Shown here piece by piece: positions 2,972-42,977 of a DNA stretch of 42,977 nucleotides. A program made the translations under genes and the position numbers. The DNA lies in contig JBEQAY010000005.1 in the NCBI GenBank assembly GCA_041640075.1, positions 1-42,977 of the forward strand, given 5' to 3'. Source of the DNA: Candidatus Nanohaloarchaea archaeon (lineage in GTDB: Archaea > Nanohalarchaeota > Nanosalinia > Nanosalinales > Nanosalinaceae). Under the pieces are notes generated by a model. That model made no database searches. It had not been told where the DNA came from and saw nothing but the letters and a program-made list of their open reading frames with translations. How positions within the stretch are numbered: the stretch's first letter is position 1; the number at the start of each line of letters is the position of its first letter.

Positions 2972-2996
2972 AATGTTTTAAAGAGCTCCTTGCGGT

Positions 2997-4718: not shown

Positions 4719-4721
4719 GTT

Positions 4722-4770
4722 TTGTAAACTTCTTCACAACTATCAAAAGTTTTTCGAAAAAAATTTACAA
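4722..4770. promoter_or_regulatory. Divergent promoter region with palindromes (candidate operators)
   Basis: Perfect palindrome TTTTTCGAAAAA at 4750-4761, plus inverted pair TTGTAAA (4722-4728) and TTTACAA (4764-4770). Confidence 0.35.
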
Positions 4771-4816
4771 CCCACTATTTTAAGCTGCTGATACTGTTGT
4801 CTCTATGTGATAATAA

Positions 4817-6382: not shown

Positions 6383-6407
6383 AAATCAAATCAGAGGATA
6401 AAACACA

Positions 6408-7855: not shown

Positions 7856-7882
7856 AGACTAAACCACGAGGCAAGAACTTCA

Positions 7883-10478: not shown

Positions 10479-11788
10479 AACCTGAGAAAGTTTTCAAGAG
10501 ATACGACATTAGAGGAAAATACCCTGAGGAACTGGATGAGGAGTTCGCCGAGAGACTTGGAAAAGCTCTTGCAGCTTTTACACGCGAAAACTTCTCTAAA
10601 CGTATAGTGGTATGCAGAGACAACAAGGAGAGCTCCGCAAAGCTAAAGGAGAGTCTTATCCAGGGACTGAAGTCCTCGGGGATGAAGATACTTGACATCG
10701 GGGAAGGACCCACTGATTACGCTGCCTACCTCGGGAAAAAGCATGGCTGCGTCTCGGTACAGGTCACCTCATCTCACATGCCGCTGAGCTTCAACGGCTT
10801 CAAGTTCATGTATCCTGAAGGAAACGGATTCGTCAATGAGGACCTGAACCAGGTGAAGGAGAACTTCAGAAAGGAGAGATTCGTGAGAGGGGATGGAGAG
10901 GTCGACAGGATAGAGTCAACGTCCAGGAGAAAATACAAGGATGAGCTTAAGATGACAGCGACACGGAACAGCTCTGCAAAGATCGAAAGGAAGATAGTGG
11001 TCGATACCATGGGTGGTGCAACACGTGAAGTCCTGCCAGATCTTCTTGACAACCTTGGAGCGACTGTGGTGGATCTTGCGGATGAAAAAGATGAGGAGAT
11101 GCCATACCGTGATCCTCCAAATCCAAAGCCAGAACTACTTGACGAACTTGTGGAGAAGGTTGAAGAGGTGGAAGCAGATCTTGGACTTGCCACTGATATG
11201 GATGGTGATCGTGTAACAGTTTACTACGATGGCGAGTTTCTGTCCGGTGACGAAGTCTTCTGCATCATCGGACAGCTTGTGGGCGGCGACTCGGTTGCCT
11301 CAATTGATACCTCAAAGGCTCTCGAGGACCTCATGGAGGAAAGTGACGGCAGAGTATTCTACACGCGTGTCGGCGACCCTTTCGTCATGGATAAAGCTCT
11401 TGAGGAAAACGTGAATTTTGCAGGAGAGCCTAACGGACATTACTCTGTTCTCAACTTTGTGCCGTACAACTCCGGTACCCTGACGGCTCTGATGGTTGCA
11501 GGAACCGATATAGATCAGAAGCTGGAGCAGATGCCTTTTTACAGCGTCCAGCGCGACAGCCTGGAGGTCAAAGACAAGGAAAGAGTCATGGATGCACTGC
11601 GTGAAGGCCTCGAGGAAGAAGACATAATCTCGGAGAAGGATGGCGTGAAGGCGAAGTTTGGGCACGCAGAGGTTCTGATGCGGCCTTCAGGTTCATCTCA
11701 GAAGATAAGGGTGATCTCGGAAGCCCAGAATGAGGAAACGGCTGGGGCTGGTCTTGAGGAAGCTAAGGAACTGATCCGGAACTCATAA
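10475..11788 (+). CDS. Phosphohexomutase (PGM/PMM/GlmM family)
   Basis: FKRYDIRG, TSSHMP phosphoserine loop, DMDGDR metal loop, GEPNG and RPSGS. Confidence 0.93.
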   Translation: MKPEKVFKRYDIRGKYPEELDEEFAERLGKALAAFTRENFSKRIVVCRDNKESSAKLKESLIQGLKSSGMKILDIGEGPTDYAAYLGKKHGCVSVQVTSSHMPLSFNGFKFMYPEGNGFVNEDLNQVKENFRKERFVRGDGEVDRIESTSRRKYKDELKMTATRNSSAKIERKIVVDTMGGATREVLPDLLDNLGATVVDLADEKDEEMPYRDPPNPKPELLDELVEKVEEVEADLGLATDMDGDRVTVYYDGEFLSGDEVFCIIGQLVGGDSVASIDTSKALEDLMEESDGRVFYTRVGDPFVMDKALEENVNFAGEPNGHYSVLNFVPYNSGTLTALMVAGTDIDQKLEQMPFYSVQRDSLEVKDKERVMDALREGLEEEDIISEKDGVKAKFGHAEVLMRPSGSSQKIRVISEAQNEETAGAGLEEAKELIRNS

Positions 11789-28226: not shown

Positions 28227-29356
28227 TCTTCCTGCTGCTTTCCCTGGCACTGGGATTCCTGGTAACTTTTGCAGGAACACCCTACGCTAGGAAGTATCTC
28301 CTCGACTCGGGGATTTACGGCGTTGACCAGCAGAAAAAAGAAAAGCCTAAGATACCAACTTCAGGCGGCATCAGCGTAGTCTTCGGCTTCCTTGTTGCAA
28401 CAACTTTTTATCTTGGCCTTAACTCTTTCTTTACAGCACCAGGTGTAGAGGTAAGTCTTATACTGGCTGCACTAAGCTCTGTATGTATAATAACATTGAT
28501 TGGTTTGGTAGATGACATCCATATCAATATAACAAAGCTTATCCAGGATGAAACAGATCTTGACAGCGATGAAATAGATCTTGAACTACCAGAAACCAGA
28601 GACTCTCCTCTGGAAAAATTAACTGTGCTTCTAAGTTGGGATCTTTTCTCTGAGAAAGATGACTCTGGAGACGTCCATAGGGCAGGTCTAAGGCAGAACC
28701 TGAAGATGCTTTTCGTTCTACCAGCCGCATTCCCCTTGATCGCTGTAGGAGCTGGTTCCTGGAGCATGACAGTTCCAGTACTGGAGATGACTATTAACTG
28801 GGGGATTCTTTACCCACTGCTGCTGCTTCCTATCGGCCTACTGTTTGTATCAAACATAGTGAACATGCTTGCAGGAACAAATGGTCTTGCAGCAGGCATG
28901 AGTCTAGTAGCCTCCTTCTCACTGGGAACTTTCGCAATCATGAACGGAGAAACAGAGGCAGCACTTATCGCATGGAGTATTTCAGCACCGCTTGCAGCAT
29001 TCCTTTACTTCAACTTCTACCCTGCATCCATTCTTCCAGGAGACTCACTGACCTACCTATGTGGTGCCGCCATGTTCTCAGCGATGGTAGTCGGCAACAT
29101 GGAGAAGTTCGGAGTATTCATCTTCACACCATGGATAATGGAGTTCTTCCTCAAACTTCGAAGCGGCTTTGACGCCCATTCCTGGGGTATAATACAGGAA
29201 GACGGATCACTTGAATCTCAACATGATAAAATCTACTCTCTGACCCACGTCTTCATGAGGAGAGGATTCACTGAGAGACAGATAACAGTCAGTTTAATAA
29301 CTGTAGAAGCCCTTATCTGCATTACGGGACTTCTACTATTCACCGTGGTACTATGA
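28223..29356 (+). CDS. aglH: UDP-GlcNAc:dolichyl-phosphate GlcNAc-1-phosphotransferase (AglH/Alg7-like, MraY superfamily)
   Basis: G.D..K, PTSGG, GLVDD, NIVNMLAGTNGL and PASILPGDS. ATG 28223 forms an ATGA overlap with the aglB stop. Confidence 0.85.
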   Translation: MIFLLLSLALGFLVTFAGTPYARKYLLDSGIYGVDQQKKEKPKIPTSGGISVVFGFLVATTFYLGLNSFFTAPGVEVSLILAALSSVCIITLIGLVDDIHINITKLIQDETDLDSDEIDLELPETRDSPLEKLTVLLSWDLFSEKDDSGDVHRAGLRQNLKMLFVLPAAFPLIAVGAGSWSMTVPVLEMTINWGILYPLLLLPIGLLFVSNIVNMLAGTNGLAAGMSLVASFSLGTFAIMNGETEAALIAWSISAPLAAFLYFNFYPASILPGDSLTYLCGAAMFSAMVVGNMEKFGVFIFTPWIMEFFLKLRSGFDAHSWGIIQEDGSLESQHDKIYSLTHVFMRRGFTERQITVSLITVEALICITGLLLFTVVL

Positions 29357-31161
29357 GCGACATGGACATAGACGACCTGAAACAGAAAATGCAGGAAACG
29401 TTTCAGAACAAGTACTTCCTGGTTTTATTTGGAATAGTGGCTTTCTCAGCTTTAATTCGATTCAGATACGCCTTTTTCGAAGGTATGTGGGTAGACGAAT
29501 CAATCCATGGCAGGCTTGCGAAAGAACTTCCACACCACCTTCTTGAATATGCTTTACCAGAGATGAAAGGTCAACTCACCAAGAGACCTCCAGTGTATAA
29601 TTATCTGATAACCCTGTCAAACATGACTCTTGGCGGGCTCCTGGGGACCGATACAGCGATAAGAATAGTCAGTCCCATCATGGGAACACTGAGCGTTGTT
29701 TCAACGTACTTTCTGGGACGGGAAATACTGAATAAAAGAACAGGTTTAATTGCAGCAGCACTCGTATCGGTAAACGGAATAATGTGGTTCCTGAGCGAAA
29801 GAATTCTAATGGGCGCAACCTTAACATTCTTCTTCACAACATCACTTCTGGCATTCTACTACGGACTGCAGGATAAAAAATACTCTAAATACGCAATCTG
29901 GGCCTGGGGACCACTCATATTCCTGACAGCTCTCTCAAAACAACCAGGATACGTACTTGGACCAGTAATAGTAATCTTCTTCCTCTACATGAAGAGAAGT
30001 GAACTCAGCGACTACTTCATGACAGATAAAGACCTGAAAGACTCCAAACTATGGGAGGAACTTACAAACAGGAACTACTACATCGCTTTAGGGCTTTTCG
30101 CCTTACTGATGCTTCCATGGATGGTGAGAAACATGAGGGTATGCGGTTTCCCACTTTGCTCTGTTCAGACGGCTCTTCAGATTGTGGAATCAACCACTGG
30201 AAATCTTGATGTACGTGGGACTTTCTTCTTCCTCACAGGGATGCCTGGAATACTGACTCTGCCCGTTGCCGCAGTGACAGGTGTTAAGATCCTGAAAAAT
30301 TTCTTTGACTCTTTCAGCAGAGACGCTGATCTATTCGTCAAGAAAACAGTAATTTCTTTAGTACTTATTTCAGGTGCTTTCTTCCTCCACAGAGAACTTA
30401 CACCGCTTATGATAGTCGGTTCTCTGGCTATGTACGCAGTCAGAGACGGCGAAAAACTTCTCTGGGTTGCAGCGGCTTTCGGTCTGGGAATAATGTCGGT
30501 AAACCAGACCAAGGTTCCACGATACATAGTATTCGCAATACCTGCCATCCTGACAGTAACCGCTATAGGAATAGAGGAGTTCAGTTCACAGATCGCCGAG
30601 CTTCTGAGCGGAAAACTCAATAGTACGGATTTTGAACCAGAATACATAGCCGCCCTCATCCTGATTCCTCTGCTCGGCTTCTCCTATCTTAACGGGCTGG
30701 GGATGGTCTCCAGCAACGGATTTGAATCCCTGGAACCTGCCGGAGAATGGTTAAATGAGAACACTGACAAAAACGACAGATTCATCGCTACCTCGCCACA
30801 GTATAGATACTGGACACATCCAAGAACGCCTGTATCAGCCGCAGGAAGGATACCCGGAAACGAAACCGATTTCAAAAACTTCCTGAGGGATGAAAACATA
30901 TCTTATGTTATAACAGATGTCTACGAGAGAACCCAGCCAGACTGGATAAATACAGGTATCCCTCCCTATCGCATGACACGAAGTCTTGCGCAGCAGATTC
31001 GTTCAGGCCAAATTACAGCTCAGGACGCCTTTAACCAGTTCCAACAGGAACCTAACTACCTTGTGCCTGTACAGAGTTTTGGAGAAACACGAATGCCTTT
31101 AACAGAGCAAACCCAGCCAGCAGTGGTTATTTACCAGGTTAACAGGAGTGCCTTGCAGTGA
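29353..31161 (+). CDS. GT-C fold glycosyltransferase (ArnT/PMT, GT39/GT83-like)
   Basis: WVDE after TM1, KRPPVY, multiple TMs, PRY motif and a soluble C-terminal domain; ATGA overlap. Confidence 0.85.
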   Translation: MSDMDIDDLKQKMQETFQNKYFLVLFGIVAFSALIRFRYAFFEGMWVDESIHGRLAKELPHHLLEYALPEMKGQLTKRPPVYNYLITLSNMTLGGLLGTDTAIRIVSPIMGTLSVVSTYFLGREILNKRTGLIAAALVSVNGIMWFLSERILMGATLTFFFTTSLLAFYYGLQDKKYSKYAIWAWGPLIFLTALSKQPGYVLGPVIVIFFLYMKRSELSDYFMTDKDLKDSKLWEELTNRNYYIALGLFALLMLPWMVRNMRVCGFPLCSVQTALQIVESTTGNLDVRGTFFFLTGMPGILTLPVAAVTGVKILKNFFDSFSRDADLFVKKTVISLVLISGAFFLHRELTPLMIVGSLAMYAVRDGEKLLWVAAAFGLGIMSVNQTKVPRYIVFAIPAILTVTAIGIEEFSSQIAELLSGKLNSTDFEPEYIAALILIPLLGFSYLNGLGMVSSNGFESLEPAGEWLNENTDKNDRFIATSPQYRYWTHPRTPVSAAGRIPGNETDFKNFLRDENISYVITDVYERTQPDWINTGIPPYRMTRSLAQQIRSGQITAQDAFNQFQQEPNYLVPVQSFGETRMPLTEQTQPAVVIYQVNRSALQ

Positions 31162-32279
31162 CAGACATAAGTCTTGTAATTCCGACCATGAATGAGGAGG
31201 AAGGTATAGGAGAATGTATAGAAAGGGCGCAGAACGCTTTTAACGAACTTGGAATGAATGGAGAGATAATCATAAGCGACAGCTCCTCTGACAAAACCCC
31301 TGAAATCGCCAGAGAAAAAGGTGCAAAAGTTGTAACACCAGACAAGCCAGGTTACGGATACGCATACCGGTACGGATTCGAAAGAGCAGAAGGAGACCTC
31401 ATCGCAATGGGCGATGGAGATACAACATACGATTTCGAGGAACTCCCGGAGCTTATCCAAAAAATGAGGGATGAAGACGCTGATATGGTCATGGGCAGCC
31501 GTCTGGATGGAGATATAAAGCCCGGATCAATGCCCAAACTCCATAAATACATCGGCAACCCGTTACTCACAAAGTTCCTGAACAGGTTCTACGGCGCAGG
31601 AGTCAGCGACGCACACAGCGGTATGAGGGTAATCAAAAAAGAATCTCTAGACAAACTTGACCTGAAAACAGATGGAATGGAGTTTGCCTCAGAGATGATA
31701 ATGGAGGCAGGAGCCAGAAACCTGAAGATAGTTGAAAAACCTATAATATACCATGAAAGAGAGGGAGACGCCACACTACATAGTTTCAGGGACGGATGGC
31801 GACACGTAAAATTCATGCTACTGAATGCACCTAGTTATATCTTCTCAGTACCCGGGCTGATTCTAATGACGCTTGGCGCTTCATTACTGGGAATCTCCTT
31901 TCTGGATATAAGCCCACTAGGACAGCAACTTGGTGAAAACACCACTATAGCCGGATTACTGCTCTTTCTAATCGGATATCAGGCAGAGAGCCTCTCAATC
32001 TTTACTTCAGTGACCTCAGACCCAATAAAAGATCCTGGGGGACGCATAAACAACTTTATACTCGAAAAATTCAGCTTCGAGAAAGGAATAGCAGCCGGTT
32101 CAACCTTGTTTTTCCTGGGAGCAGGTTATGCAATATACCTTACCTACAACTGGTACAGCACCGGCTTTACCGCCATACCAAATATAAACCAGAGTATAGC
32201 TGCATTTACAGGTATATTCACAGGCATACAGACGATATTTTACTCAATGTTTTTGACTATAATAATGGACAAAGAATAA
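31158..32279 (+). CDS. GT2 glycosyltransferase (dolichol-phosphate hexose synthase-like) with C-terminal TM helices
   Basis: VIPTMNEE, SDSSSD, GYG, DGDTTY, GSR and DAHSGMR; GTGA overlap. Confidence 0.92.
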   Translation: MTDISLVIPTMNEEEGIGECIERAQNAFNELGMNGEIIISDSSSDKTPEIAREKGAKVVTPDKPGYGYAYRYGFERAEGDLIAMGDGDTTYDFEELPELIQKMRDEDADMVMGSRLDGDIKPGSMPKLHKYIGNPLLTKFLNRFYGAGVSDAHSGMRVIKKESLDKLDLKTDGMEFASEMIMEAGARNLKIVEKPIIYHEREGDATLHSFRDGWRHVKFMLLNAPSYIFSVPGLILMTLGASLLGISFLDISPLGQQLGENTTIAGLLLFLIGYQAESLSIFTSVTSDPIKDPGGRINNFILEKFSFEKGIAAGSTLFFLGAGYAIYLTYNWYSTGFTAIPNINQSIAAFTGIFTGIQTIFYSMFLTIIMDKE

Positions 32280-32291
32280 ACGGTGGGTCAA

Positions 32292-33569
32292 ATGCAGAGC
32301 GAATACAGTAATGTAATACTTTTAAGCGTGGATGCATTACGCAAAGATAGAATTAACGGTAGTTACGAGAGGGATGCAGCTCCTTTCCTTTCAAGACTCG
32401 CTGAAGAAAACATGGAGTTTACTAACTGTATTAGTACAAGTTCTCACACTCGTGAAGCAATGTCAAGTATGCTCACAGGAGTTTATCCATATAAAGCGAA
32501 TAAAAAAGGTCTTATACCAAAGAAAGCACCGGGTGGAGGATTCCACCTAAATCAGAAGACCATAAGTTCGTATCTGGACATCGAAACAGGTGGTTTCCAT
32601 TCAAACCCTTTTCTATCAAGGTCATTTGGATATGGCGAAGACTGGAATAAGTTTGACGATGACATGTATCTGGGAAATAACAAGATTCTAACTCTATTAA
32701 ACCGGTTTATTGGAAAGTTAACCAATAGACATTATTCAAGCGCAGAAAAGATCAATGAAAAATCCCTTGGATGGTTGGATTCAACAAGCGGTAACTTCTT
32801 TCTCTGGAATCATTACATGGATCCACACGGCCCATATCAACCACCGAAAGAATTTAGAGGAAGATACCAGGAAACTCCTTTAAGCAACAGGAAAGCACAG
32901 AATCTGCTAAAGAAAGCGATAACATCACCTGAAGAAATCTCCGAGGATGAACAGCAGAGTCTCATAGATCTGTACGATGAAGAAGTTAGTTACGTAGACA
33001 GCAAAATCAAAGAATTATTTAAAAGTCTAGAAGAGCGAGATCTACTGGCTGAAAGTCTTATTTTAATCGTGGGAGACCACGGAGAAGCATTCGGAGAAAA
33101 TAAATTCTTTGAACATGGCGGAGCCTTGACCGAAGAACTTGTTAGAGTTCCACTAATTATAGTGGATGGGAAGAATATGACTTTAGATACTCCTGCTTCT
33201 GTAATTGATATTGTTCCGACAGTTTTAGCAGCTTTGGGAGAGGATATACCGGAAGATCTCGATGGAGAGAATCTTCTGGAAATAGCTGAAGAACCTGAAA
33301 AATTCAAAGACAGGACTGTTTTCTGTCAGGAAACTAAAAACCAGAATTTGCTTTTCGGAGGTTTCAAAGATGAAGAGATTTTTACTCTAGAGGTTGAAGA
33401 CCGCAATAAAGAATTATCTACAAACTCAGAAGGTATAGAGAAGGAAGTAAGATCTTACGCCGAAAAAGTTCTACATGGAAAAGAGTCAAATGAAAATGAA
33501 GACGAAGTAGAAGAAGAGGTAAAGGAAAGACTTGAGGCTCTAGGATACACCGGAGAAAAATCTCGATGA
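32292..33569 (+). CDS. Sulfatase-like alkaline-phosphatase-superfamily enzyme, Thr at the nucleophile position, C-terminal ERLEALGY tail
   Basis: VDALR.D, HTREAMSSMLTG, HYMDPHGPY, GDHGEAFGE, VPLI and DIVPT. ATG 32292 or GTG 32283 start. Confidence 0.88.
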   Translation: MQSEYSNVILLSVDALRKDRINGSYERDAAPFLSRLAEENMEFTNCISTSSHTREAMSSMLTGVYPYKANKKGLIPKKAPGGGFHLNQKTISSYLDIETGGFHSNPFLSRSFGYGEDWNKFDDDMYLGNNKILTLLNRFIGKLTNRHYSSAEKINEKSLGWLDSTSGNFFLWNHYMDPHGPYQPPKEFRGRYQETPLSNRKAQNLLKKAITSPEEISEDEQQSLIDLYDEEVSYVDSKIKELFKSLEERDLLAESLILIVGDHGEAFGENKFFEHGGALTEELVRVPLIIVDGKNMTLDTPASVIDIVPTVLAALGEDIPEDLDGENLLEIAEEPEKFKDRTVFCQETKNQNLLFGGFKDEEIFTLEVEDRNKELSTNSEGIEKEVRSYAEKVLHGKESNENEDEVEEEVKERLEALGYTGEKSR

Positions 33570-34492
33570 GAAGTAGAAATCTAAAAATAATTCGCTACAG
33601 CATCACAGCAGCTTTACTTGTTTCACTAGTCTACATAGCAGATGTTAAGAGTATAACTTCTCATCTACTGAATTCTAACCTGAAGATATATGGTTTATCT
33701 GTTCTCGTATTTCTAACTATCTATATTTGGTCTGCTTTAAGATGGAAATCGCTAATAAGCGGTCTAGGATACAGTATAAGCTTTACAGACTCAGTTAAAA
33801 TAATTGCAATGTCATATGGTTTTAATAAGCTGCTACCTATGAACGCAGGCGACCTAACAAGATCAAAGCTTATGGAAAGATATACTAGTATCGACAGTCA
33901 CGGCAAAGTCCTTGGAGCTGTAGCTATGGAGCGTTTCCTTGACATACTGCTGCTTGGAACCGTAACAGCCATATCAGCATTCTATATTTTGGGAAATGCT
34001 GGAGGCCTGAAATGGTTGCTTCTAGCAGCAGCTGCTCTAGTAGTTCTCATGATTTCTATTAGACTGAAGAATAAATTATTCATCAGAATTATCGGACTGA
34101 GCAAGTCGATGGGAGTACCAGCAAAAGTAACTGAGTTTATGGAAGATGGTCTGCGGGGTTATAAAGAGATACCTCGTTCGGATTTAGTGGTGGTATTGAT
34201 CTGGCATTCCTTTAGATGGCTCTCCGGAATAATAGTGCTATATCTACTGGCTATATCTTTAGGCACCCCAATTTCACTGGCAGGAGCAGCACTCGTCACT
34301 GGAGTAATGAGTATGGTGGCTGCCCTACCGATAACTCCGGCGGGTATAGGGCCTGTTGAGGCTCTAGGAGCAGGTAGCCTGATTGTATTAGGTTTATCTA
34401 CAAGCCAAGCTGGTGCTCTGGTAATTCTACAGAGAAGTCTGGGTTTCATCCTGATGGGTGCTTTAGGCGCACTAGTTTACTCCCTCGACTAG
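33566..34492 (+). CDS. Flippase-like membrane protein (lysylphosphatidylglycerol synthase TM / UPF0104)
   Basis: RW..L, N.LLP..AGD..R, ERFLD and P.TPAGIG..E. Confidence 0.88.
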   Translation: MRSRNLKIIRYSITAALLVSLVYIADVKSITSHLLNSNLKIYGLSVLVFLTIYIWSALRWKSLISGLGYSISFTDSVKIIAMSYGFNKLLPMNAGDLTRSKLMERYTSIDSHGKVLGAVAMERFLDILLLGTVTAISAFYILGNAGGLKWLLLAAAALVVLMISIRLKNKLFIRIIGLSKSMGVPAKVTEFMEDGLRGYKEIPRSDLVVVLIWHSFRWLSGIIVLYLLAISLGTPISLAGAALVTGVMSMVAALPITPAGIGPVEALGAGSLIVLGLSTSQAGALVILQRSLGFILMGALGALVYSLD

Positions 34493-36036
34493 AAATCTAT
34501 CCCTTCAAGCTCTTTTTCTTCGTATTTCACATTCCTCTCATCTCTAAAAGCTTCTGTAATTGGCTCTCCATCTAAATCTCTCGGTACAGGAAGGTTGAGG
34601 AGGTTCAGAATTGTCGGAGTTACATCTGTAATCTTTAGTTCCTCCAGTTGTTTACCCTTTGAGATGTCTGGGCCTGACACGTGGAATATACCCTTCATTT
34701 TGTGGTGCCCTGTTCTTGAAGGACTTGATTTTATCTTCTTATTTGAACCGAATTCAAAGTGACGCCAGGACATGTACTTGAGATCCTTGGTGAAGAACAG
34801 CAAATCCGGTGCTCTGTCAAGCTCCGGACCGTGATACCTTTCCTCTTTTCTTTGGACGTTTTCAATTATTCTTTCACCTGTCTCAGGATCTTCAAAGCTG
34901 TCAAGCAATTCCTTTACTTCTTCAATAGTTTTCTCACGCTGATCTCCTTTTAGGTCTTCTTTGAGATATATCTGGCCGAAGTTTCCTTTAACAAAAGCTC
35001 TAGTGTTTTCCCAGTCGATATCGTCTTCGGAAAGAACCGGTAGTTCTGCCAGCTTCCCCAGTATTCCGCTTTCCTCCTTCTGTTCGCTCTGGACTATATA
35101 CTCTTCCAGCCCCAGTTTTGATATTAGCCTGTATCCTCTATCCGGTGTTATACCTGCTTTCAGGAGGCTTCTCCGCATCATTGTCAACGGTTTATCCTTG
35201 AACTCGAGTAATCCTTCTTCACGGAAGAGATTGTTGAGATAGATGTTTTTGTGAACCGGGCCGAATCCGTGATCAGACATAACAATCAGATAATCGTCTT
35301 CATCAAGTTTCCTCATTAGTTTTCCAAGTATCTCATCCATCCTGATGTAGACGTTCTTCAGACAGTCCTTGTACTTGTTCCCTTCTGGATGGTCTGGATG
35401 GTCTTCGTCGATGTACTTCCACATCCAGTGCGCCATGGTATCTGTATTAGGGAACAGGACCATGTTCAGATCCAGTTCATGCTGTTCTGTCAAACTGAAG
35501 AAGACCTTCTCCATCTGATCGATCTGGTCGTGATGAGACTGTATGTACTCCTCCTCGTTGTCACCGGTAAAAGTTGAGGCATGGATGGAAAGGCCTCCTA
35601 TCTCCTCTATATCTTTCCACAGCTCCCGCGGATATACTTTATCTTCGTCTATCCTGTCGATAGGAAGCCCTGAGATCATGTACCCATCTACTTCCTGTGG
35701 TGGATACGTGAGAGGTATCCCCAGCGAGCCGACAGATTTTCCATGCCTGTTCATCAGATCATATATTGTATCGGAGCCTACATCAGAGGATGTAACTATC
35801 CCGAAATCGCCGTCTTCCTGTTTAACCGAGAAATCGTAGATACCGTGTTTCCCAGGGTTTTTACCTGTTAGAAAAGATGTCCAGGCACAGGGTGTTATAG
35901 GTGGAAAAACGGTTTCAAGGTCTGCATAGGCAGACTCATCTCTTAACTTCTCAAAGTTAGGTAGATCTCCGTCCTCTATATATTGGTCTATGAGTTCAGG
36001 GCTGGCTCCGTCTATACCGAAAACGTAGACAGTCAT
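34489..36036 (-). CDS. Type I phosphodiesterase / nucleotide pyrophosphatase-like AlkP-superfamily protein
   Basis: GIDGA, PPITPCAWTSFLTGKNPGKHGIYDF, D..AH, SDHGF, GHH and DVTPT. GGAG RBS. Confidence 0.9.
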   Translation of the reverse strand: MTVYVFGIDGASPELIDQYIEDGDLPNFEKLRDESAYADLETVFPPITPCAWTSFLTGKNPGKHGIYDFSVKQEDGDFGIVTSSDVGSDTIYDLMNRHGKSVGSLGIPLTYPPQEVDGYMISGLPIDRIDEDKVYPRELWKDIEEIGGLSIHASTFTGDNEEEYIQSHHDQIDQMEKVFFSLTEQHELDLNMVLFPNTDTMAHWMWKYIDEDHPDHPEGNKYKDCLKNVYIRMDEILGKLMRKLDEDDYLIVMSDHGFGPVHKNIYLNNLFREEGLLEFKDKPLTMMRRSLLKAGITPDRGYRLISKLGLEEYIVQSEQKEESGILGKLAELPVLSEDDIDWENTRAFVKGNFGQIYLKEDLKGDQREKTIEEVKELLDSFEDPETGERIIENVQRKEERYHGPELDRAPDLLFFTKDLKYMSWRHFEFGSNKKIKSSPSRTGHHKMKGIFHVSGPDISKGKQLEELKITDVTPTILNLLNLPVPRDLDGEPITEAFRDERNVKYEEKELEGIDF

Positions 36037-36047
36037 TAAAAACTCCT

Positions 36048-36260
36048 TTAACCCATGTAGCCGAGATCTTCCAGTTTTTCCTTCACTTTCTCCTCCTGCT
36101 CTTCGCTGTACGAGGATTCACTTCCCTGCTTCTCCTTCTTTATCTTCTGCACTACCTGCTCAAGAAGGTGTTCGATATACTCCTCTGTCTCATCAAAATC
36201 TTTCTCCTCAGCCCTTAATTCCAGAACTTCATATAGTTCATTTTTTATCTCGACTTTCAT
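36048..36260 (-). CDS. Small RHH-like protein with C-terminal EKLEDLGY tail
   Basis: N-terminus VEIKNELYEVL..RAEEKDF..TEEYIEHLL (RHH-like) and C-terminus EEKVKEKLEDLGYMG; lies 11 nt upstream of the phosphodiesterase. Confidence 0.75.
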   Translation of the reverse strand: MKVEIKNELYEVLELRAEEKDFDETEEYIEHLLEQVVQKIKKEKQGSESSYSEEQEEKVKEKLEDLGYMG

Positions 36261-36328
36261 GGGTTATCACGTAAAAAGTGGATATGTGATGTTTAAACAA
36301 GTTTCAGAATCTCAGTGTTGACAAAAAT

Positions 36329-36703
36329 CTATTCGTCTTCTTCTCTTTCCTCGGCGTATGGGTCTTCTACTCTTGTGATGTCGCCTGGTTTGTATGGGAA
36401 TGAGATTTCGAGGATTTCTGCTACTTCGTCGTCGATGTTCTGTAGCTGGTGTTTTTCCTCTGATCTGACGACTTTGGCGTTGCCTTTTTCGAGTTCTTTC
36501 ATGTCGCCTTCGTGTCTGAGAACTATGTTGCCTTTTTCCAGGTAGATGATGTCTGCCTGGTGTTCGTGGTAGCTGTAAGATGTCATTTCATCAGCGTTTA
36601 TGACGAGCCTTCGGATTCCAAGCATTCCTACCTGGTCTCCGACGTCTACCTGTGTCATGAGGACCTGTTCCTCGTATCCCCATGGCTTCTCTATCTTTCC
36701 CAT
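36329..36703 (-). CDS. Cupin-domain protein (mannose-6-phosphate isomerase type II C-terminal-like)
   Basis: KPWG, S..YH, H.L.N, LEIS and DITRVEDPY. Confidence 0.8.
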   Translation of the reverse strand: MGKIEKPWGYEEQVLMTQVDVGDQVGMLGIRRLVINADEMTSYSYHEHQADIIYLEKGNIVLRHEGDMKELEKGNAKVVRSEEKHQLQNIDDEVAEILEISFPYKPGDITRVEDPYAEEREEDE

Positions 36704-36728
36704 GGAAAAGTTATAGGCTTGAAACTTC

Positions 36729-37667
36729 TTATACGTGTTTCCTGTAGTACTCTACTGTCTTCTTCAGGCCTTCCTCAAATCCGTGCTGAGGTGTCCAGTC
36801 CAGAAGTTCCTGGGCTTTATCGTTTTCAGCCCTGTGCTGTTCCACGTACTTGTCACGCGGATTTTCGATCTTCTCCGGCTCTATATCCTTGCCAAGTACA
36901 TCGTTCAGTTTCTCTACAACTTCATTGAATGTTACAGGACTTCCGCCTCCTACGTTGATGACTTCTCCATCCAGTTCAGGCTTCGTCTTGGCGGCGGAGA
37001 TGTTGGCCTCTGCCACGTCTTCAACATAGACGAAATCTCTCTCCTGCGTTCCATCTCCCCATATCACAGGTTGTTCGTCGTTTTGCATCTTCCACAGGAA
37101 CTGGGTGACCACGTTAGCGTACTTTCCCTTCGACCTCTCATGAGGTCCGAAAACAGAGAAATACCTGAGACCGGTAGTCTCAATCTTATCCGTATAGGAA
37201 TAGCATCTGGCATACAGCTCCCTGGACATTTTGGAAGCTGTGTAAAGATTTGTAGGTTCAAGATCCATGTCCTCTTGGTGAGGTGGTTCTACACTGCCGT
37301 ACATGGAGCTTGTGGAGGCATAAACTATTTTCTCAACTTCTTCATCTATCGCTGCCTCGGCAACACTGATGAAGCCTTCAATATTTACTCTTGCGCCCTC
37401 AGCAGGGTTTTCCTTGTGCATCGGCGAGGAGCTCCTTGCTGCCTGGTGAAATACCACATCTACTCCCTGCATCGCTTCACTTACTTTTTCATCGTCGAGC
37501 ACCGATCCTTCGATAAACTCTATCTCGTCTCTTACCTTGGATAGGTTATCCTCACTGCCCAGAAATAGGTCGTCGAGCACAACTACCTCAACGTCTCTTT
37601 CGACAAGTTTCTCTACGATATTGGAGCCTATGAATCCTGCTCCCCCTGTAACCAGCGCCCTTTCCAT
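36729..37667 (-). CDS. NAD-dependent nucleotide-sugar epimerase/dehydratase (extended SDR)
   Basis: TGGAGFIGS, YASTSS, YTASK, LRYFSVFGP and GDGTQERDF. Confidence 0.93.
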   Translation of the reverse strand: MERALVTGGAGFIGSNIVEKLVERDVEVVVLDDLFLGSEDNLSKVRDEIEFIEGSVLDDEKVSEAMQGVDVVFHQAARSSSPMHKENPAEGARVNIEGFISVAEAAIDEEVEKIVYASTSSMYGSVEPPHQEDMDLEPTNLYTASKMSRELYARCYSYTDKIETTGLRYFSVFGPHERSKGKYANVVTQFLWKMQNDEQPVIWGDGTQERDFVYVEDVAEANISAAKTKPELDGEVINVGGGSPVTFNEVVEKLNDVLGKDIEPEKIENPRDKYVEQHRAENDKAQELLDWTPQHGFEEGLKKTVEYYRKHV

Positions 37668-37671
37668 AACA

Positions 37672-38538
37672 CTAATTTGAGTCCAGTGAGTTTTTTAGTT
37701 CCTGCCTTGTCGGAAGTGCAGCCATGGCACCTTTCTCCCGGATGGAAAGCGAGGCTGCATGCACAGCCTTTTCGAGAGCTGAATCGATACCTTCAGCCCT
37801 GAAAGCCAGGTATGCTCCTGCCAGTGCATCTCCTGCTCCTGTAGTATCCTCTACATCCACTTCTGGAGGTTTTACAGAGTGAGTTTCATCTCCTGTAATC
37901 ACTTCTGCTCCTTTCTCACCTCTACTAACCACTATCTCCTCAACATCTTCCAGAACTTCCTCAACACCTCCAAGTTGCCCTACCTCGTCTTCCGCGGCGA
38001 AAAGAATATCTGTATGTTCTATTACCTGTTTCAAGGTACTGAAGTATTCATCATCTACAAGTTCCTCTCTCAGATTTGGATCGAAGCTCACCATTGAATC
38101 AGTTTTCTCAAGAGCTTCAAGTATGTATTCCGCTGTTTCTTTATGCGTCAAGGGAAGGGAACCTACGTGAAGGATTTCCTGTTGATGGTCTATCTGTTGG
38201 CGAGTTATCTTCATATCTGCGCCTCTGTGAAAGCTGAAATCCGGCTCTGCATTCTCCTTGAGTGATACAAACGCCAGGGTAGTGTTATCCTCTATCTTTC
38301 TTATGGAAGATGTGTCTATATCTTCCTCTTCGAGCTTCTGAACCATGAGTTCTCCAAAGTGATCTTTTCCTACTGTAGCCGTCATTTTAGTGTCTGCTCC
38401 AAGTCTTGAAGCTGCCACTGTCAGATTTGCAGGCGCTCCTCCCGGCCTTCTGTGGTATTCCTGTACTTCTCTGAGTTTTTCTCCGTCTTTCCCGATCATG
38501 TCGACCAGGACTTCCCCTATACTGTTTATTTGAACGAT
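37672..38538 (-). CDS. PfkB-family carbohydrate kinase (fructokinase-like)
   Basis: PGGAPAN, SFDPNLR and DTTGAGD. The conserved N-terminal IGEVLVD lies upstream of the first ATG (38499), so the start is placed tentatively at ATC 38538. Confidence 0.88.
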   Translation of the reverse strand: MVQINSIGEVLVDMIGKDGEKLREVQEYHRRPGGAPANLTVAASRLGADTKMTATVGKDHFGELMVQKLEEEDIDTSSIRKIEDNTTLAFVSLKENAEPDFSFHRGADMKITRQQIDHQQEILHVGSLPLTHKETAEYILEALEKTDSMVSFDPNLREELVDDEYFSTLKQVIEHTDILFAAEDEVGQLGGVEEVLEDVEEIVVSRGEKGAEVITGDETHSVKPPEVDVEDTTGAGDALAGAYLAFRAEGIDSALEKAVHAASLSIREKGAMAALPTRQELKNSLDSN

Positions 38539-39413
38539 TTTCGGACACCTTCTAAGTATTCTTCAGCTCTTTCAAGCTCTTCAGTTTTTTCCTCGTCAGC
38601 GAGTTCTCCAACCATTATCTCGCCCTCTGGTTCTTCAAGCCCCCATTCCCTCATCTCCTCGTCAGCTACAGGTTGCTCGTGAGTGAGAAAGTTCAGTACC
38701 CATCCCGAGGTATGATGGTCATCGTCTTCATCGTTGCCGACGTATACCGTGGCCTCATCCACTTTACTCACTGCCTGATCCAGATCATCACCTACAGCCA
38801 CCCCGAAACCACCCAGTTCATCTGCCAGCCTTATAGCCTCCAGATCCCCGTTGCTATCCCCTGTATAGACAGGTTCGTGAGGATCTCGCCCGACCTGCTG
38901 TCGGTAGAACTCCTTGAGATTCTCTGGTTTCTGTGGACGGCCGTTGTAGAAAGGTTCTTCACCCACATCACCAGCTATTATACCATCAAAATGGCCGTTA
39001 GTCTGGGCCCGTGCAAGAGGCTGGAAACCAGCAGTAGAAAGAACGTTCAGACCTCCACGGTCCGATCTCGCACCTAAAACCGCTTCAAAACCTTTTCTAG
39101 GCTCCAGATCCAGTTCATCAACGTTTTGACGTGCGTACTCTGCAAAATCAGGGTTTTCGTACAGGAAAGTCACGAGAGGGTTGCTGTGGCCTCTGGGTTT
39201 TTCATCCGTCACCGCCTCCATCAAGGTGTCAAAATCATTTCTTTCATAGAGTTCCTGTCCTGATGGAAGATTTTCTCCAACCACTGTATCCGGCACGTAC
39301 TGGAACTCACCGTTGAAATCCGCTGAAGCTCTCAAAAGCTCATAACCCGAATCCGTGCCTATTACAGTATTATCCCAGTCCGTGACATAGTCTCTTGCTG
39401 CTGATTCACTCAT
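38526..39413 (-). CDS. HAD-superfamily hydrolase-like protein
   Basis: TDWDNT (DxDxT), STAG, K, and YTGDSNGD motif IV. Confidence 0.7.
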   Translation of the reverse strand: MSESAARDYVTDWDNTVIGTDSGYELLRASADFNGEFQYVPDTVVGENLPSGQELYERNDFDTLMEAVTDEKPRGHSNPLVTFLYENPDFAEYARQNVDELDLEPRKGFEAVLGARSDRGGLNVLSTAGFQPLARAQTNGHFDGIIAGDVGEEPFYNGRPQKPENLKEFYRQQVGRDPHEPVYTGDSNGDLEAIRLADELGGFGVAVGDDLDQAVSKVDEATVYVGNDEDDDHHTSGWVLNFLTHEQPVADEEMREWGLEEPEGEIMVGELADEEKTEELERAEEYLEGVRKSFK

Positions 39414-39477
39414 CAAGTTATCACCGCAAACACAATTCGTATTACGATGTATTACTTTGATCCTTTATAAATCCTTC

Positions 39478-40257
39478 TCAGAAATCAAGAACCATCAGAT
39501 CTTCCGCTACCACGACCTCTCCATAGAAAATCTCCTGTGCCTGAGGCTTCAGATCCTCCTTCTCTGCCTGCGGATACAGGTGTGAAAGAACCAGAGTTTC
39601 AACACCTGCTCTTTCAGCAAGCCTGGCGCACTCCTCGGCGTTCATATGGCCTTCAACCTCCTCTCCAGCGGGACGGGAGCAGTCAGCCACCAGCAGATCA
39701 GCACCATCGGCAAAACTTTCGAGCTCGGGGTTGTAGTCGGTATCTCCCGTAAAAACCACACTTTTCTCGCCGGAATCAAATTTTAGTGAAAGACATTTGA
39801 AGCCTTCAGGACCATGTAAAGCCTCTACAGAACGCATCACAAGATCTTCAGATATCTCCTGTTCATCCTTTATCTCCTGTATATCAACAGCAAAATCGAA
39901 CTTTTCCTGCATTTCAGAGGGTTTCTCCATCATCTCATGATGAATCCTGTCCTCAAGATATTTTACATGGCCTTCAGGACCGTAAAGAGTTAAACTCTCC
40001 TCTTCAGCTGAGAAAGACCGTACTACCTTGTCCTGTATCACAGGCAGCAGATCTGAGATATGATCAGCGTGTCTGTGTGTATTTACGACTGCATCGATAT
40101 CCTGCACTGAGTAATCAGTGTCGGGAATGTTCCCTGTGCTTCCTGTACCTGTATCAACCATCAGAACTTTTCCAGCCATCTCCAGTACGTATCCTGAGGA
40201 TGCTCTGTGGTTCTGTTCTATCACGCACGATCCTGAGCCCAGTACTGTAAGTTTCAA
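39478..40257 (-). CDS. Metallo-beta-lactamase-fold hydrolase (RNase Z/ElaC-like)
   Basis: LTVLGSG, DTG.G, THRHADH, H, FTGDT, GH and LSHLYP. TTG 40257 with AGGTG upstream is the likely start. Confidence 0.88.
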   Translation of the reverse strand: MKLTVLGSGSCVIEQNHRASSGYVLEMAGKVLMVDTGTGSTGNIPDTDYSVQDIDAVVNTHRHADHISDLLPVIQDKVVRSFSAEEESLTLYGPEGHVKYLEDRIHHEMMEKPSEMQEKFDFAVDIQEIKDEQEISEDLVMRSVEALHGPEGFKCLSLKFDSGEKSVVFTGDTDYNPELESFADGADLLVADCSRPAGEEVEGHMNAEECARLAERAGVETLVLSHLYPQAEKEDLKPQAQEIFYGEVVVAEDLMVLDF

Positions 40258-40262
40258 GAAAT

Positions 40263-41015
40263 TCACCTTTCGGAAAAATCCTTCCATTCGCCGCCGTAGA
40301 TATAGCCTGAAAGTTTTCTCTGGTCTGAAAGTCTTTCGAAGACGGCTTCAAGGCTTTCCTTACCTAGTTGATCAAATATCTCTGGTTCAAGCAGGTAAGT
40401 CCCGGCGTTGATAAGCCTGGAAGGCTCCTCACCAGATGAAGGCTTCTCCTCGAATCCAAGAATCGTTCTACCCTTTAGTCTAGCCACACCATACTCTGAA
40501 GGGTTGTTTACAGTGGTTAAAGCCATTGTAGCTACTGCTCTCTCGTCCCTGTGGACTTCAAGCATGTCTTCAAGGTCGACATCGCTTATAACATGTCCGT
40601 TGAGGGCAATAAATGTGCTGTTTATCCTGTCCTCTACTTTGGCAAGTGCTGCCGCCTTTCCCTTTGGTTCCTCCTCGGAAACGTACTCCAGATTTACGCC
40701 TCTATATCTTGAGCCAAAGTGTTCCTCTATTTCCTCCCTGTTCTTTCCTGTCAGAAGTATAACCCTCTGGATATCCTGCAGATCGAGATTATCTATTATA
40801 TGGGCGAGTACAGGTTTGCCTTCGTATTGGTTCATGGACTGGAGGTCTTCCCCTCCGCAGAAGATGACTGCGGTCCTGATCGACCTGTTCCTGAAGTATT
40901 CTTTGATTATGGTCTCGACCTGTCTAGAGCGGTTGACGTCGTTCATATCTGCTTCCGCGTCTATCGTGTCAACAAGCTCCTCTTCCAGAGTCAGTGAGAC
41001 GCGTTTCTTCGACAT
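40263..41015 (-). CDS. RHH DNA-binding domain fused to a degenerate sugar-phosphate nucleotidyltransferase domain
   Basis: N-terminus KKRVSLTLEEELVDTID...NRSRQVETII, then GKP, NGHV, YGV, FEEKP, INAGTY and W.D. The GxGxR loop is truncated. Confidence 0.85.
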   Translation of the reverse strand: MSKKRVSLTLEEELVDTIDAEADMNDVNRSRQVETIIKEYFRNRSIRTAVIFCGGEDLQSMNQYEGKPVLAHIIDNLDLQDIQRVILLTGKNREEIEEHFGSRYRGVNLEYVSEEEPKGKAAALAKVEDRINSTFIALNGHVISDVDLEDMLEVHRDERAVATMALTTVNNPSEYGVARLKGRTILGFEEKPSSGEEPSRLINAGTYLLEPEIFDQLGKESLEAVFERLSDQRKLSGYIYGGEWKDFSER

Positions 41016-41067
41016 ATCAAGAGTTTATGCCTCTACGTTTTAATTACTCACTCACGAAAAAACCGGT

Positions 41068-41973
41068 ATGAAAGTCGCAGTCACAGGTGGAGCAGGATTC
41101 ATAGGATCCCATCTAACCGAGGAACTCCTGGAAAATCACGATGTAAAGATAATCGACAACCTCTCCTCAGGACAGGAAGAAAACATACCGGAAGAAGCAG
41201 AGTTTTTCGAAGCAGATATCAAGGAAGACGATCTCGAAAAAATACTTGAAGACGTAGAAGCAGTTTTCCACCTTGCAGCGAACCCGAAAGTCAACACTTT
41301 CCCTGAAGACCGTGAAAAAGACTTCAACGAAAACCTGAAAGGAACGAAAAGAGTTCTGGAGGCCTGTGAAAGAACAGGCGTAGAGGAACTTGTCTTCGCC
41401 TCTAGTTCAGTAGTTTACGGTGAGGACACAGAGATACCGACACCCGAGGACGCAGATATGGATCCTATCTCGATGTACGGAGCGACGAAAGCTGGTGGAG
41501 AGCATATGTGCCAGGTATACCAGCAGATCTTCGACATAGATCTTACAATCGTGCGTCTGGCGAACATAGTCGGCGGCAGGAATCAGAAAGGAGTAATCTA
41601 CGACTTCATACACAAACTCAGAGATGAGCCGGAAAAACTGGTTATCCTTGGTAACGGGAAGCAGAGAAAATCATACCTACATGTTTCCGACACTGTCTCC
41701 GGGATTCTAAGCGCCTGGAAATCGAAAGAAACTGTTTTCAACATCGGATCCGAGGACTCCATCGATGTGGACGGTATAGCGGAGATCGTCGCTGATGAGA
41801 TGAATCTTGACCCGGATTACGAGTACACCGGCGGTGAAAAAGGGTGGGACGGTGACGTGCCGGAGATGCGGCTGGATATCGAAAAACTGAAGGAAACCGG
41901 CTGGAGACCTGAACATGATTCTGGTTCTTCAGTGCGTAAGACAGTTAAAGAACTGATCTCAAAACTGGATTGA
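41068..41973 (+). CDS. galE: UDP-glucose 4-epimerase-like extended SDR
   Basis: TGGAGFIGSH, ASSSVVYG, YGATK, GNGKQRKSY and GWDGDVP. Confidence 0.88.
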   Translation: MKVAVTGGAGFIGSHLTEELLENHDVKIIDNLSSGQEENIPEEAEFFEADIKEDDLEKILEDVEAVFHLAANPKVNTFPEDREKDFNENLKGTKRVLEACERTGVEELVFASSSVVYGEDTEIPTPEDADMDPISMYGATKAGGEHMCQVYQQIFDIDLTIVRLANIVGGRNQKGVIYDFIHKLRDEPEKLVILGNGKQRKSYLHVSDTVSGILSAWKSKETVFNIGSEDSIDVDGIAEIVADEMNLDPDYEYTGGEKGWDGDVPEMRLDIEKLKETGWRPEHDSGSSVRKTVKELISKLD

Positions 41974-42692
41974 TGGAGTACTTCAACGAGTTAACGGCTT
42001 TTGCAGCAGGTATAGTTCTGGCTTCAGTCCTGATAGCGCCGACTCCATCGCTTGACAGGCCTTTTGACGGTACACGTGAAGCCTCAGCCAATATAGCCGC
42101 TGTCTCAAGCGTAGGAACCGGAAGCCTTGGAGCAGTCAACGTCAAGGTCGGTCCTGGGGATGGAAGTGTGCTTCTGAATGCAGATCCTTTCATCGAGACG
42201 GATACACAGGTCTCCGCGAAGACTGCCAAGAAAGTAGCGGAAGAAGTGACTGGAGAAACTCTCGAAGGTAAAGACGTGACCTACAGATTCCAGATAAACG
42301 GAGAGTACGTTGGAGGGCCTTCTGCAGGTGCAGCCATGACACTGGCAACTATAGCAGCAACTGAAAACAGGACTGTACCTGAAGACGTCGCTGTAACAGG
42401 TACAATAAGAGCTGATGGCACCATTGGAAGAGTAGGTGGAATAATCGAGAAAGCAGAGGCAGCAGGAAGAAATGACCTTGAAACCTTCTACGTACCGGAC
42501 GGACAGGCAAACATCACCTACTACACACAGAAAATAGACAGAGAGGTAATCTATCCTGGCCTCTACACGTCAGAAGTTGAGTACGAGCAGAGAACCTTCT
42601 CAGTGAACAACTACACCCAGAGCGAGTACAACATGACCACCAGAGAGGTTTCAAATATTGAAGAGTTATACAGCGATGCCTGGAACAGGTAG
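41973..42692 (+). CDS. Lon-like S16 serine protease domain protein, exported or membrane-anchored, no ATPase domain
   Basis: N-terminal hydrophobic segment, GGPSAG (Ser), TGTI..DG.IG.VGGI.EK (Lys). Confidence 0.88.
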   Translation: MEYFNELTAFAAGIVLASVLIAPTPSLDRPFDGTREASANIAAVSSVGTGSLGAVNVKVGPGDGSVLLNADPFIETDTQVSAKTAKKVAEEVTGETLEGKDVTYRFQINGEYVGGPSAGAAMTLATIAATENRTVPEDVAVTGTIRADGTIGRVGGIIEKAEAAGRNDLETFYVPDGQANITYYTQKIDREVIYPGLYTSEVEYEQRTFSVNNYTQSEYNMTTREVSNIEELYSDAWNR

Positions 42693-42738
42693 AAAAGAAA
42701 ATAAGATAAAAAGAAATTGAATGAAGGCCTGAAAGCCT

Positions 42739-42977
42739 CTACATATAGCCCAATTCTCTGAGGCGGTTCATGATCTCCTCATCGTCCTTGTTCTGGGCTC
42801 TGCCTGCTCTCTCCTTCGTGTTCTCCACATCCTGTAGCCATGCAGGGATCTCATCAGACTTGTCGGTCGATACCTCTGATCCAAGGCTTCTGAATCCTGC
42901 CCAGTACTTCGGACTGATCGGTACGTCGTCCTTTGAAAGTCCTTCCGGCAGATCTGATTCGTCTTCAGGGTACTCTT
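42739..42977 (-). CDS. cysD: Sulfate adenylyltransferase subunit 2 (CysD), C-terminal fragment
   Basis: Manual translation ...VPISPKYWAGFRSLGSEVST...NTKERAGRAQNKDDEEIMNRLRELGYM* shows the CysD-type RSLG and ER.GRAQ motifs. Not in the ORF track. Confidence 0.82.
   Translation of the reverse strand, partial: EYPEDESDLPEGLSKDDVPISPKYWAGFRSLGSEVSTDKSDEIPAWLQDVENTKERAGRAQNKDDEEIMNRLRELGYM

Follow-up and report, generated by a model that had tools for sequence, protein, structure and literature searches.

A C-terminal LxxLGY tail shared by CysD-like, alkaline phosphatase-fold and small RHH-like proteins of nanohaloarchaea and its possible role in glycan sulfation

Three proteins encoded in a 42,977-nucleotide stretch of DNA from Candidatus Nanohaloarchaea archaeon (contig JBEQAY010000005.1 of assembly GCA_041640075.1, referred to here as the window) were found to end in the same short tail, an acidic helix closing with L-x-x-L-G-Y. 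The carriers are a 428-residue enzyme of the alkaline phosphatase (AlkP) fold, a 70-residue ribbon-helix-helix (RHH)-like protein and a CysD-like protein. A preliminary description of the window had pointed out the three tails. In scans of the genome and of metagenomes the motif was restricted to sulfate-activation, AlkP-fold and small RHH-like proteins. For the tail of the 428-residue enzyme, docking was predicted in the cleft of an NPP-family enzyme of 261 residues that is itself tail-less and encoded beside CysD. We tentatively read the tail as a plug-in arm for AlkP-fold clefts, which would couple sulfate activation to sulfate transfer on surface glycans, and give this reading a probability of about 0.45.

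Tail carriers in the window, the genome and metagenomes

The three cores lay where the preliminary description had placed them, as listed below. Its statement that no other protein of the window ends in this way was also confirmed, as 3 of the 51 selected open reading frames (ORFs) of the window ended in LxxLGY.

32283..33569, forward strand: 428-residue AlkP-fold enzyme, Pfam Sulfatase (PF00884, E 6.8e-36; homolog motif; AlphaFold model)
33531..33548, forward strand: LxxLGY core of tail 1, L417 to Y422, with a helix at residues 407-420 after an acidic linker
36048..36260, reverse strand: 70-residue CopG/RHH-like protein with tail 2, core at 36057-36074, residues 63-68 (24 homologs; Atlas CopG cluster)
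42739..42977, reverse strand: last 78 codons of the CysD-like protein, R-x-G-R followed by tail 3, core at 42745-42762

The window corresponds to contig C5 of a 0.98-Mb assembly that is 89% complete. Among the 1,232 selected ORFs of this genome, nine showed LxxLGY within the last 12 residues, when 0.27 were expected from composition, and a chance origin of the tails was rejected on these numbers. One of the nine was a hydrophobic look-alike, and the other eight were acidic-helix tails, namely four AlkP-type ends, two small RHH-like proteins and two near-identical CysD-like copies; one of the AlkP-type tails, on a 129-residue stub of contig C40, was classed through its full-length AlkP relative. 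Local invention was likewise rejected, the tail being a family-wide trait in each carrier family. A profile of the tail found no chain in the PDB below E 0.35, its best value, and no Pfam or NCBIfam entry matched it.

The preliminary description had assigned the three carriers to three folds. The AlkP assignment held, with a PF00884 score of 124.5 bits and PDB sulfatases as the top sequence matches. The CysD assignment rests on a full copy elsewhere in the genome, as the contig ends within the gene and the window shows just the last 78 residues. The RHH label is a weak one: the 70-residue protein gave no Pfam match at E 0.01, five of the 25 rows formed by it and its 24 homologs weakly matched FitA-like RHH proteins, and it fell in a CopG-family Atlas cluster at 0.92. 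L-x-x-L-G-Y was invariant in all 25 rows. Proteins of about 212 residues with an RHH-like N-terminal start, an unknown middle and an LGY tail were seen at L014:1753-2397 and L091:7465-8103, directly upstream of a tail-less NPP.

The 428-residue enzyme and its homologs (haloarchaeal ones about 40-45% identical) have Thr at the nucleophile position, in S-S-H-T-R-E-A, and the formylglycine motif C/S-x-P-x-R was absent from that site. The other tailed AlkP enzymes show W-T-L-P-S at the nucleophile, and the genome's sole AlkP enzyme with a true S-x-P-x-R sulfatase motif is tail-less. All 117 aligned homologs of the 428-residue enzyme, found by a full-protein search that favours tailed matches, had the L, L, G and Y of the tail, and much of the preceding stretch was variable. 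In the AlphaFold model the body had a predicted local distance difference test (pLDDT) score of mostly 85-99, and the linker and tail helix one of 56-62. This is consistent with a tethered arm that is not confidently packed on its own body, in a monomer model that cannot reveal a swapped dimer arm. The possibility raised earlier, that each tail packs on its own fold, thus found no support in the model of the 428-residue enzyme; on CysD the tail is the native C-terminus. The 428-residue enzyme is likely a glycan sulfotransferase of the Agl30/Agl31 kind, and this activity is putative.

The degenerate pattern E-x-hydrophobic-x-x-R-L-x-x-L-G-Y-hydrophobic-stop was found in at least 119 metagenome stretches and 8 viral ones, which gave 114 and 7 unique ORFs. 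Classes were assigned by Pfam for 61 ORFs, together with BLAST, motif and size rules. Among the matches listed, the 114 metagenome ORFs comprised 30 CysD-like proteins, 19 kinases of adenosine 5'-phosphosulfate (APS), 24 AlkP/NPP enzymes, 32 small proteins and 9 unassigned ones; with 29 of the small and 6 of the unassigned ORFs judged RHH-like by eye, four classes covered 108 of the 114, and the other six were four short fragments, one unassigned end and one P-loop sulfotransferase-like end. Given the redundancy of the sample and a pattern in which Tyr is fixed, the scan tests class restriction only. The 7 viral ORFs were 3 CysD-like and 4 others, one of which, IrrE-like, is a probable chance match. 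The tailed CysD-like proteins are encoded on viral contigs L227, L229 and L230, in one case beside a DUF2061 gene, and L223 and L225 encode an unclassified protein of 140-170 residues with a Cys motif and an LGY tail. At L198:304-642 (reverse strand) a fragment that looks like the C-terminal end of a P-loop sulfotransferase, with no Pfam match at E 1e-5, ended in the tail; classical sulfotransferases may sometimes carry it.

Sulfate activation and the predicted docking site

The CysD-like stub of the window was 98% identical at the nucleotide level to a full copy of 305 residues on contig C40. This copy scored below the NCBIfam CysD cut-offs (NF003587, 70.7 versus 195; TIGR02039, 42.1 versus 396.6), and the best PDB match of the family profile was CysD of 1ZUN (E 1.8e-47, versus 2.7e-24 for the best reductase). 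The PP-loop and R-x-G-R were present, the latter invariant in the family, and the tail Tyr of CysD-like proteins stands 19-21 residues after R-x-G-R in a tail free of Cys. A role as a reductase of APS or of 3'-phosphoadenosine 5'-phosphosulfate (PAPS) was rejected, as Cys60 is the single Cys of the 305-residue copy and neither ECG(L/I)H nor an Fe-S motif is present.

In the 89% complete genome the best match to the CysN model TIGR02034 reached 265 bits, below the cut-off of 336, and is probably EF-1alpha. Neither Sat nor APS kinase (PF01583) was found there, nor was PF13469, with PF00685 not searched genome-wide. The route through PAPS and a classical sulfotransferase was rejected for this 89% complete genome on the lack of APS kinase, Sat and PF13469 matches. 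By this gene content, the CysD-like protein likely replaces Sat and APS kinase, with APS as the likely donor; the ATP sulfurylase activity of the family is a putative one.

The distribution in 41 related genomes, which are not independent and for which counts are given without a statistic, agreed with this replacement. Sat was found in 7 of them and a true APS kinase in the same 7, and the CysD-like gene in 22 other genomes and as 1 contig-end fragment, with zero overlap with the Sat/APS-kinase route. Two of the 7 Sat genomes hold only truncated CysD relics that have kept the tail, of about 205-220 residues (L093:9475-10092 in G017 and L053:1501-2157 in G007); such relics are possibly catalytically dead adaptors. 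The tail closes five of the six APS kinases examined and is absent from Sat. The sixth APS kinase, which is tail-less, has a Pfam-confirmed P-loop sulfotransferase as its neighbour, and its genome gave no PF00884 or PF01663 match. Among the 41 genomes, the tail thus sits on the last sulfate-activating enzyme, either the CysD-like protein or APS kinase.

Gene fusions also join CysD-like proteins to AlkP/NPP enzymes. Among the best 150 representatives of the CysD-like family 40 were long, and 25 of these were AlkP/NPP-CysD fusions by BLAST, with 13 confirmed by Pfam among the 26 scanned. The ending L-R-x-x-G-Y was found in 23 of the 25 and the tail at the domain junction in none; five carry look-alike hexamers inside a domain. 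Other CysD-like proteins bear an N-terminal EF-Tu-like GTPase domain (P0307, P0354 and P0366, one as NPP-GTPase-CysD), are fused to APS kinase (P0298 and P0313) or contain LAGLIDADG inteins (P0300, P0302 and P0375).

The gene order on contig C40 is a tailed RHH-like gene, DUF2061, the tail-less NPP of 261 residues and the tailed CysD-like gene. The placing of a tail-less NPP next to the activator was seen in nanohaloarchaea, in several metagenome cassettes and on a plasmid of Halopiger. The Halopiger plasmid encodes a tailed CysD-like protein, one tail-less NPP and five tailed proteins, four of which are annotated as sulfatase or alkaline phosphatase family, and one is 44% identical to the 428-residue enzyme. 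The tail was found in none of 120 homologs of the 261-residue NPP (the hub below). This protein has kept the bimetal ligands, with Ser44 as nucleophile, and was modelled as a minimal NPP with a pLDDT of 94. Its fold matches were in the NPP family (Z 22.5-21.7, root-mean-square deviation 3.1-3.4, 242-247 residues aligned), the best being ENPP7 (Z 22.5, 3.4, 247), and its template-modelling score to Xac NPP was 0.67.

The complex of this NPP with the last 30 residues of the 428-residue enzyme and two zinc ions was then modelled; the receptor was chosen after the gene-order analysis, and the 515-residue NPP of the window was set aside because its own family carries tails. The ipSAE was 0.74, compared with 0.02 for the best control, contacts agreed between runs to at least 93%, and the partner had a pLDDT of at least 72. 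In the calibration, 116 of 157 solved pairs and 2 of 215 mismatched ones reached the pass mark, figures that apply only roughly here. In the model V413 and L417 lie on NPP residues 65-71, 100-101 and 113-117, L420 contacts His157, G421 contacts residues 211/215, and Y422 contacts F65 and V66. His157 is invariant and by homology a zinc ligand. Ser44 was not among the listed contacts. No PDB sequence matched the profile of the hub at E 0.01, and hub residues were therefore mapped to Xac NPP through the 515-residue enzyme in weak alignments, by which F65 aligns with the Asn of H-G-I-V-H-N. The conserved Asn of NPPs is phosphoryl-binding. The preliminary description had proposed co-folding each tail with each enzyme of the locus; the one pair modelled here, which passed, has a receptor that lies outside the window.

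Locus, variant tail and competing explanations

The tailed genes of the window lie in a glycosylation region that, by Pfam, contains AglB, several glycosyltransferases (GTs), two epimerases, a flippase-like gene and two AlkP-superfamily enzymes. The nearest named relatives of the window proteins are Nanohaloarchaea. Further features are as follows.

25572..32279, forward strand: glycosylation context with AglB/STT3, GT4-type transferase, PMT-type GT-C and GT2 (Pfam)
33566..34492, forward strand: flippase-like membrane protein LPG_synthase_TM, tail-less, overlapping the stop of the 428-residue enzyme
34489..36036, reverse strand: 515-residue NPP-like AlkP enzyme with a Thr nucleophile (PF01663, E 3.2e-43)
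34492-34512, reverse strand: tyrosine-free variant tail E-L-E-G-I-D-F of the 515-residue enzyme

The start of the 515-residue enzyme is 12 bases downstream of the gene of the 70-residue protein. The variant tail follows an acidic linker and can be written hydrophobic-x-x-[LIV]-[DE]-[FIVL]-COOH; it keeps the register of LxxLGY, lacks Tyr and closes about half of the nanohaloarchaeal AlkP/NPP enzymes. The end hydrophobic-x-x-L-D-F, a pattern defined after examples had been seen, was found in 41 of 85 AlkP/NPP ORFs versus 8 of 586 other ORFs. The 70-residue tailed protein usually adjoins variant-tail enzymes and could supply the tail in trans.

Elsewhere in the window, positions 594-11788 hold a sugar-phosphate cluster with an oxidoreductase, two nucleotidyltransferases with hexapeptide repeats, a PIG-L deacetylase, a methyltransferase, inositol monophosphatase, phosphomannomutase and an unannotated 521-residue ORF at 4817-6382. 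At 40263-41015 (reverse strand) an RHH domain is fused to a nucleotidyltransferase-like domain whose usual N-terminal signature seems absent, and this fusion is kept beside epimerases in most related loci. Contig C40 matches the window end with 98% identity at the 3' end of the CysD-like gene and about 99% in a second flank, and looks like a strain variant of this locus. Compared with window positions 41783-42977, C40 has a 571-residue protein with a weak metallopeptidase match in place of a 240-residue Lon_C-like gene, so that the slot between the epimerase and CysD-like genes is probably strain-variable.

In the plug-in arm reading, APS would come from the CysD-like protein with neither CysN nor APS kinase involved, as gene content suggests, and the tail of this protein would dock on the tail-less 261-residue NPP next door, by the binding predicted with the tail of the 428-residue enzyme. 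Tailed transferases such as the latter would use the same arm on the hub, on their own cleft or on that of a partner. The RHH-like protein would act as a sensor or competitor at this site, by analogy with CymR and CysK, and the invariant Tyr would complete the site at the position of the phosphoryl-binding Asn. In this reading the sequences, their distribution, the gene order and the fusions are observed and the binding is predicted, and from these we infer the donor, the flow of sulfate and the regulation. As one cleft cannot hold two tails, tails that all use a single cleft would bind in turn, which makes the single stable multi-enzyme complex of the preliminary description less plausible. 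Its idea of a portable interaction tag fared better in that the tail is portable, class-restricted and predicted to bind a partner; it changes in that each tail is family-wide and the one on CysD is a native C-terminus.

Several observations weigh against the plug-in arm. Conservation in the predicted interface barely exceeded that in the remainder of the NPP (0.73 versus 0.70). As a single complex with our own alignments and zinc included, the model lies outside the calibration of the tool, and close cousins of a true partner also pass. The modelled tail may have passed because it resembles the CysD or RHH tails, and the natural ligand is thus not singled out by the prediction. The CysD-like tail aligns with the end of canonical CysD, G-Y being common to both and charged residues of the canonical end standing against leucines here; since canonical CysD ends in G-Y without the leucines, part of the conservation is CysD-internal. 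Tyrosine-free tails, including that of the 515-residue enzyme, and LGY tails occur inside one AlkP subfamily. A tail-less NPP was seen near 3 of 14 CysD-like and 6 of 10 APS-kinase metagenome loci of at least 3 kb, where ORF calling was imperfect. In the single-contig genomes G018, G022 and G024 (96-99% complete) an ortholog of the 261-residue NPP was not found; they keep tails on CysD and RHH, and their AlkP enzymes are tail-less. For G023 (96% complete) the searches found an AlkP enzyme with a tail, and no CysD-like protein, Sat, APS kinase or hub. Tailed AlkP enzymes without a found activator also occur in G002, which is 77% complete, and in G011 and G015, where the relevant locus is broken at a contig end.

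A covalent version, which we consider doubtful, holds that the tail Tyr takes sulfate from APS at the CysD-like site and hands it to the Ser/Thr nucleophile in the AlkP cleft, the tail-less NPP passing sulfate between tail tyrosines in a ping-pong manner and the RHH protein reading the sulfation state. The parallel with APS reductase argues for it: in the part of the source available, the reductase has a nucleophilic Cys in a flexible tail, 14 residues past the first Arg of R-x-G-R, which takes sulfur from APS covalently (10.64898/2026.09.04.749436), and the Tyr of CysD-like proteins likewise follows R-x-G-R. This Tyr was kept in 117 of 117, 25 of 25, 53 of 53 and 110 of 111 tails, when Phe is common at several other Tyr columns, and fusions keep one terminal tail though docking would then be unnecessary. 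With CysN not above the cut-off a trap for APS would help, and a single cleft for many tails would imply exchange in turn. On the other side stand the absence of Ser44 from the listed tail contacts, the lack of a modelled contact between Tyr and the nucleophile, the 41 of 85 AlkP/NPP ORFs with a Tyr-free end and the presence of both types in one subfamily, the G-Y end of canonical CysD, which releases APS, and four other tyrosines that are equally invariant in the family of the 428-residue enzyme. APS kinase and RHH proteins have no known means to sulfate their own tails. Extended to a widespread and complete sulfation relay without a classical sulfotransferase, the covalent version seems equally doubtful. 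The activator would then load sulfate from APS or PAPS onto a portable tail of 15 residues, on which it would travel as tyrosine-O-sulfate; a minimal Ser-NPP hub would exchange it, Thr-nucleophile AlkP enzymes would receive it and sulfate glycans, and the tailed RHH regulator would read the tail.

It is improbable that each tail serves its own family only, the CysD end closing its own site, the AlkP tail forming a lid in cis or an arm of a dimer, with the likeness arising by shuffling or mimicry with no shared receptor. Each family does keep the tail throughout, G023 has its tailed AlkP enzyme without a found activator, G018, G022 and G024 have tails without a hub, and the monomer model is blind to a swapped dimer arm. 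However, APS kinase is tailed where AlkP enzymes are present and tail-less in the one examined genome with a P-loop sulfotransferase, the truncated CysD relics of G007 and G017 keep the tail, a regulator of 60-70 residues has no cleft of its own to close, and the cross-protein complex model passed. It is very improbable that the tails share another receptor, such as a membrane scaffold, TPR protein or protease, and that the NPP model is a false pass. Flippase-like membrane genes are frequent neighbours of tailed enzymes and often flank them, yet by inspection only the tail-less NPP was seen to follow the tail across loci, and false passes in the calibration were 2 of 215. A free C-terminus is not required either, since Agl30 and Agl31 with C-terminal StrepII-His tags still gave sulfated glycan in Haloferax, according to the accessible text (PMC11980604).

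Meaning and comparison with known systems

A shared tail that joins sulfation components appears undescribed. Nothing on the tail was found in open-access main texts, a search from which supplements were excluded, which could bear on whether it had been noticed; open-access texts on CysN-less CysD, nanohaloarchaeal sulfation and AlkP-fold sulfuryl transfer gave nothing on it either. Already known are AlkP-fold glycan sulfotransferases, a copG-Sat-NPP-kinase cluster and C-terminal peptides that dock in active sites. The finding would be categorically new only if the tail tyrosine carries sulfate. Acyl carrier protein-like shuttles are swinging covalent carrier arms, and a tail with a sulfated Tyr would be their counterpart for sulfate and a group-transfer carrier of a new kind; a relay, if true, would explain how ATP sulfurylases work without CysN. 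Agl30 and Agl31 were identified only in 2025, as far as the available text tells (PMC11980604). Across archaea and bacteria, the tail links these two with APS kinase, a CysD-like protein free of CysN, a small regulator and an uncharacterised NPP, and it makes the way in which archaea sulfate glycans with sulfatase-shaped enzymes testable by single mutants in an existing genetic system. It also offers a simple marker that separates likely sulfotransferases from proteins annotated as sulfatase or phosphodiesterase.

Agl7 of Haloferax volcanii has a sulfatase-like annotation. This gene (HVO_2046) is a sulfation gene of the N-glycosylation cluster whose loss removes sulfate from the glycan, in the part of the source at hand (PMC3892788). 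The accessible text on Halobacterium salinarum describes Agl30 (VNG1056C) and Agl31 (VNG1057C) as AlkP-fold proteins whose deletion removes glycan sulfate, sulfotransferases by this genetic evidence, and VNG1063H as showing no clear sulfation phenotype (PMC11980604). The published primers translate to HLEDLGYL for Agl30, LEELGYT for Agl31 and KELGYIE for the last codons of VNG1063H. The 428-residue enzyme resembles Agl30 and Agl31, known here by their primer-encoded ends, in AlkP fold, location in an N-glycosylation cluster and LGY tail. In the text available, the terms PAPS, APS, donor and tail gave no matches and no mechanism was named (PMC11980604).

In Pyrococcus yayanosii, a copG-Sat-pApase-NPP-APS kinase cluster without a classical sulfotransferase was described in the passages available (PMC8268124). 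In those passages its NPP was guessed to degrade pyrophosphate and the tail was unmentioned. As far as these passages go, the cluster is the gene set of the Sat/APS-kinase cassette in the relatives, and differs from the present system, which has a CysD-like gene in place of Sat and APS kinase.

Canonical CysD (CysDN, 1ZUN) is by sequence the closest structural relative of the CysD-like protein, with the PP-loop, R-x-G-R and terminal G-Y aligned. Unlike the canonical system, CysN was not above the cut-off, leucines stand at the end, and the scores fall under the NCBIfam CysD cut-offs. APS/PAPS reductase (CysH) shares a homologous fold and, with its ECG(L/I)H arm, a flexible tail after R-x-G-R; going by the accessible part of the source, the CysD-like tail differs in having Tyr, not Cys, 5-7 residues further out.

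The C-terminal peptides of CysE and CymR dock in the active site of CysK, for which a free carboxylate is required. The likeness is that unrelated sulfur-pathway enzymes and a regulator share a C-terminal peptide that enters, here by prediction, the active site of a hub. The present tail differs from that peptide in fold, sequence and chemistry, and tagged Agl30 and Agl31 stayed active. Compared with Xac NPP and ENPP1/4/7, the 261-residue NPP has Ser for Thr and Phe/Tyr at the conserved Asn, is about 120 residues shorter, and differs also by its predicted peptide-binding cleft.

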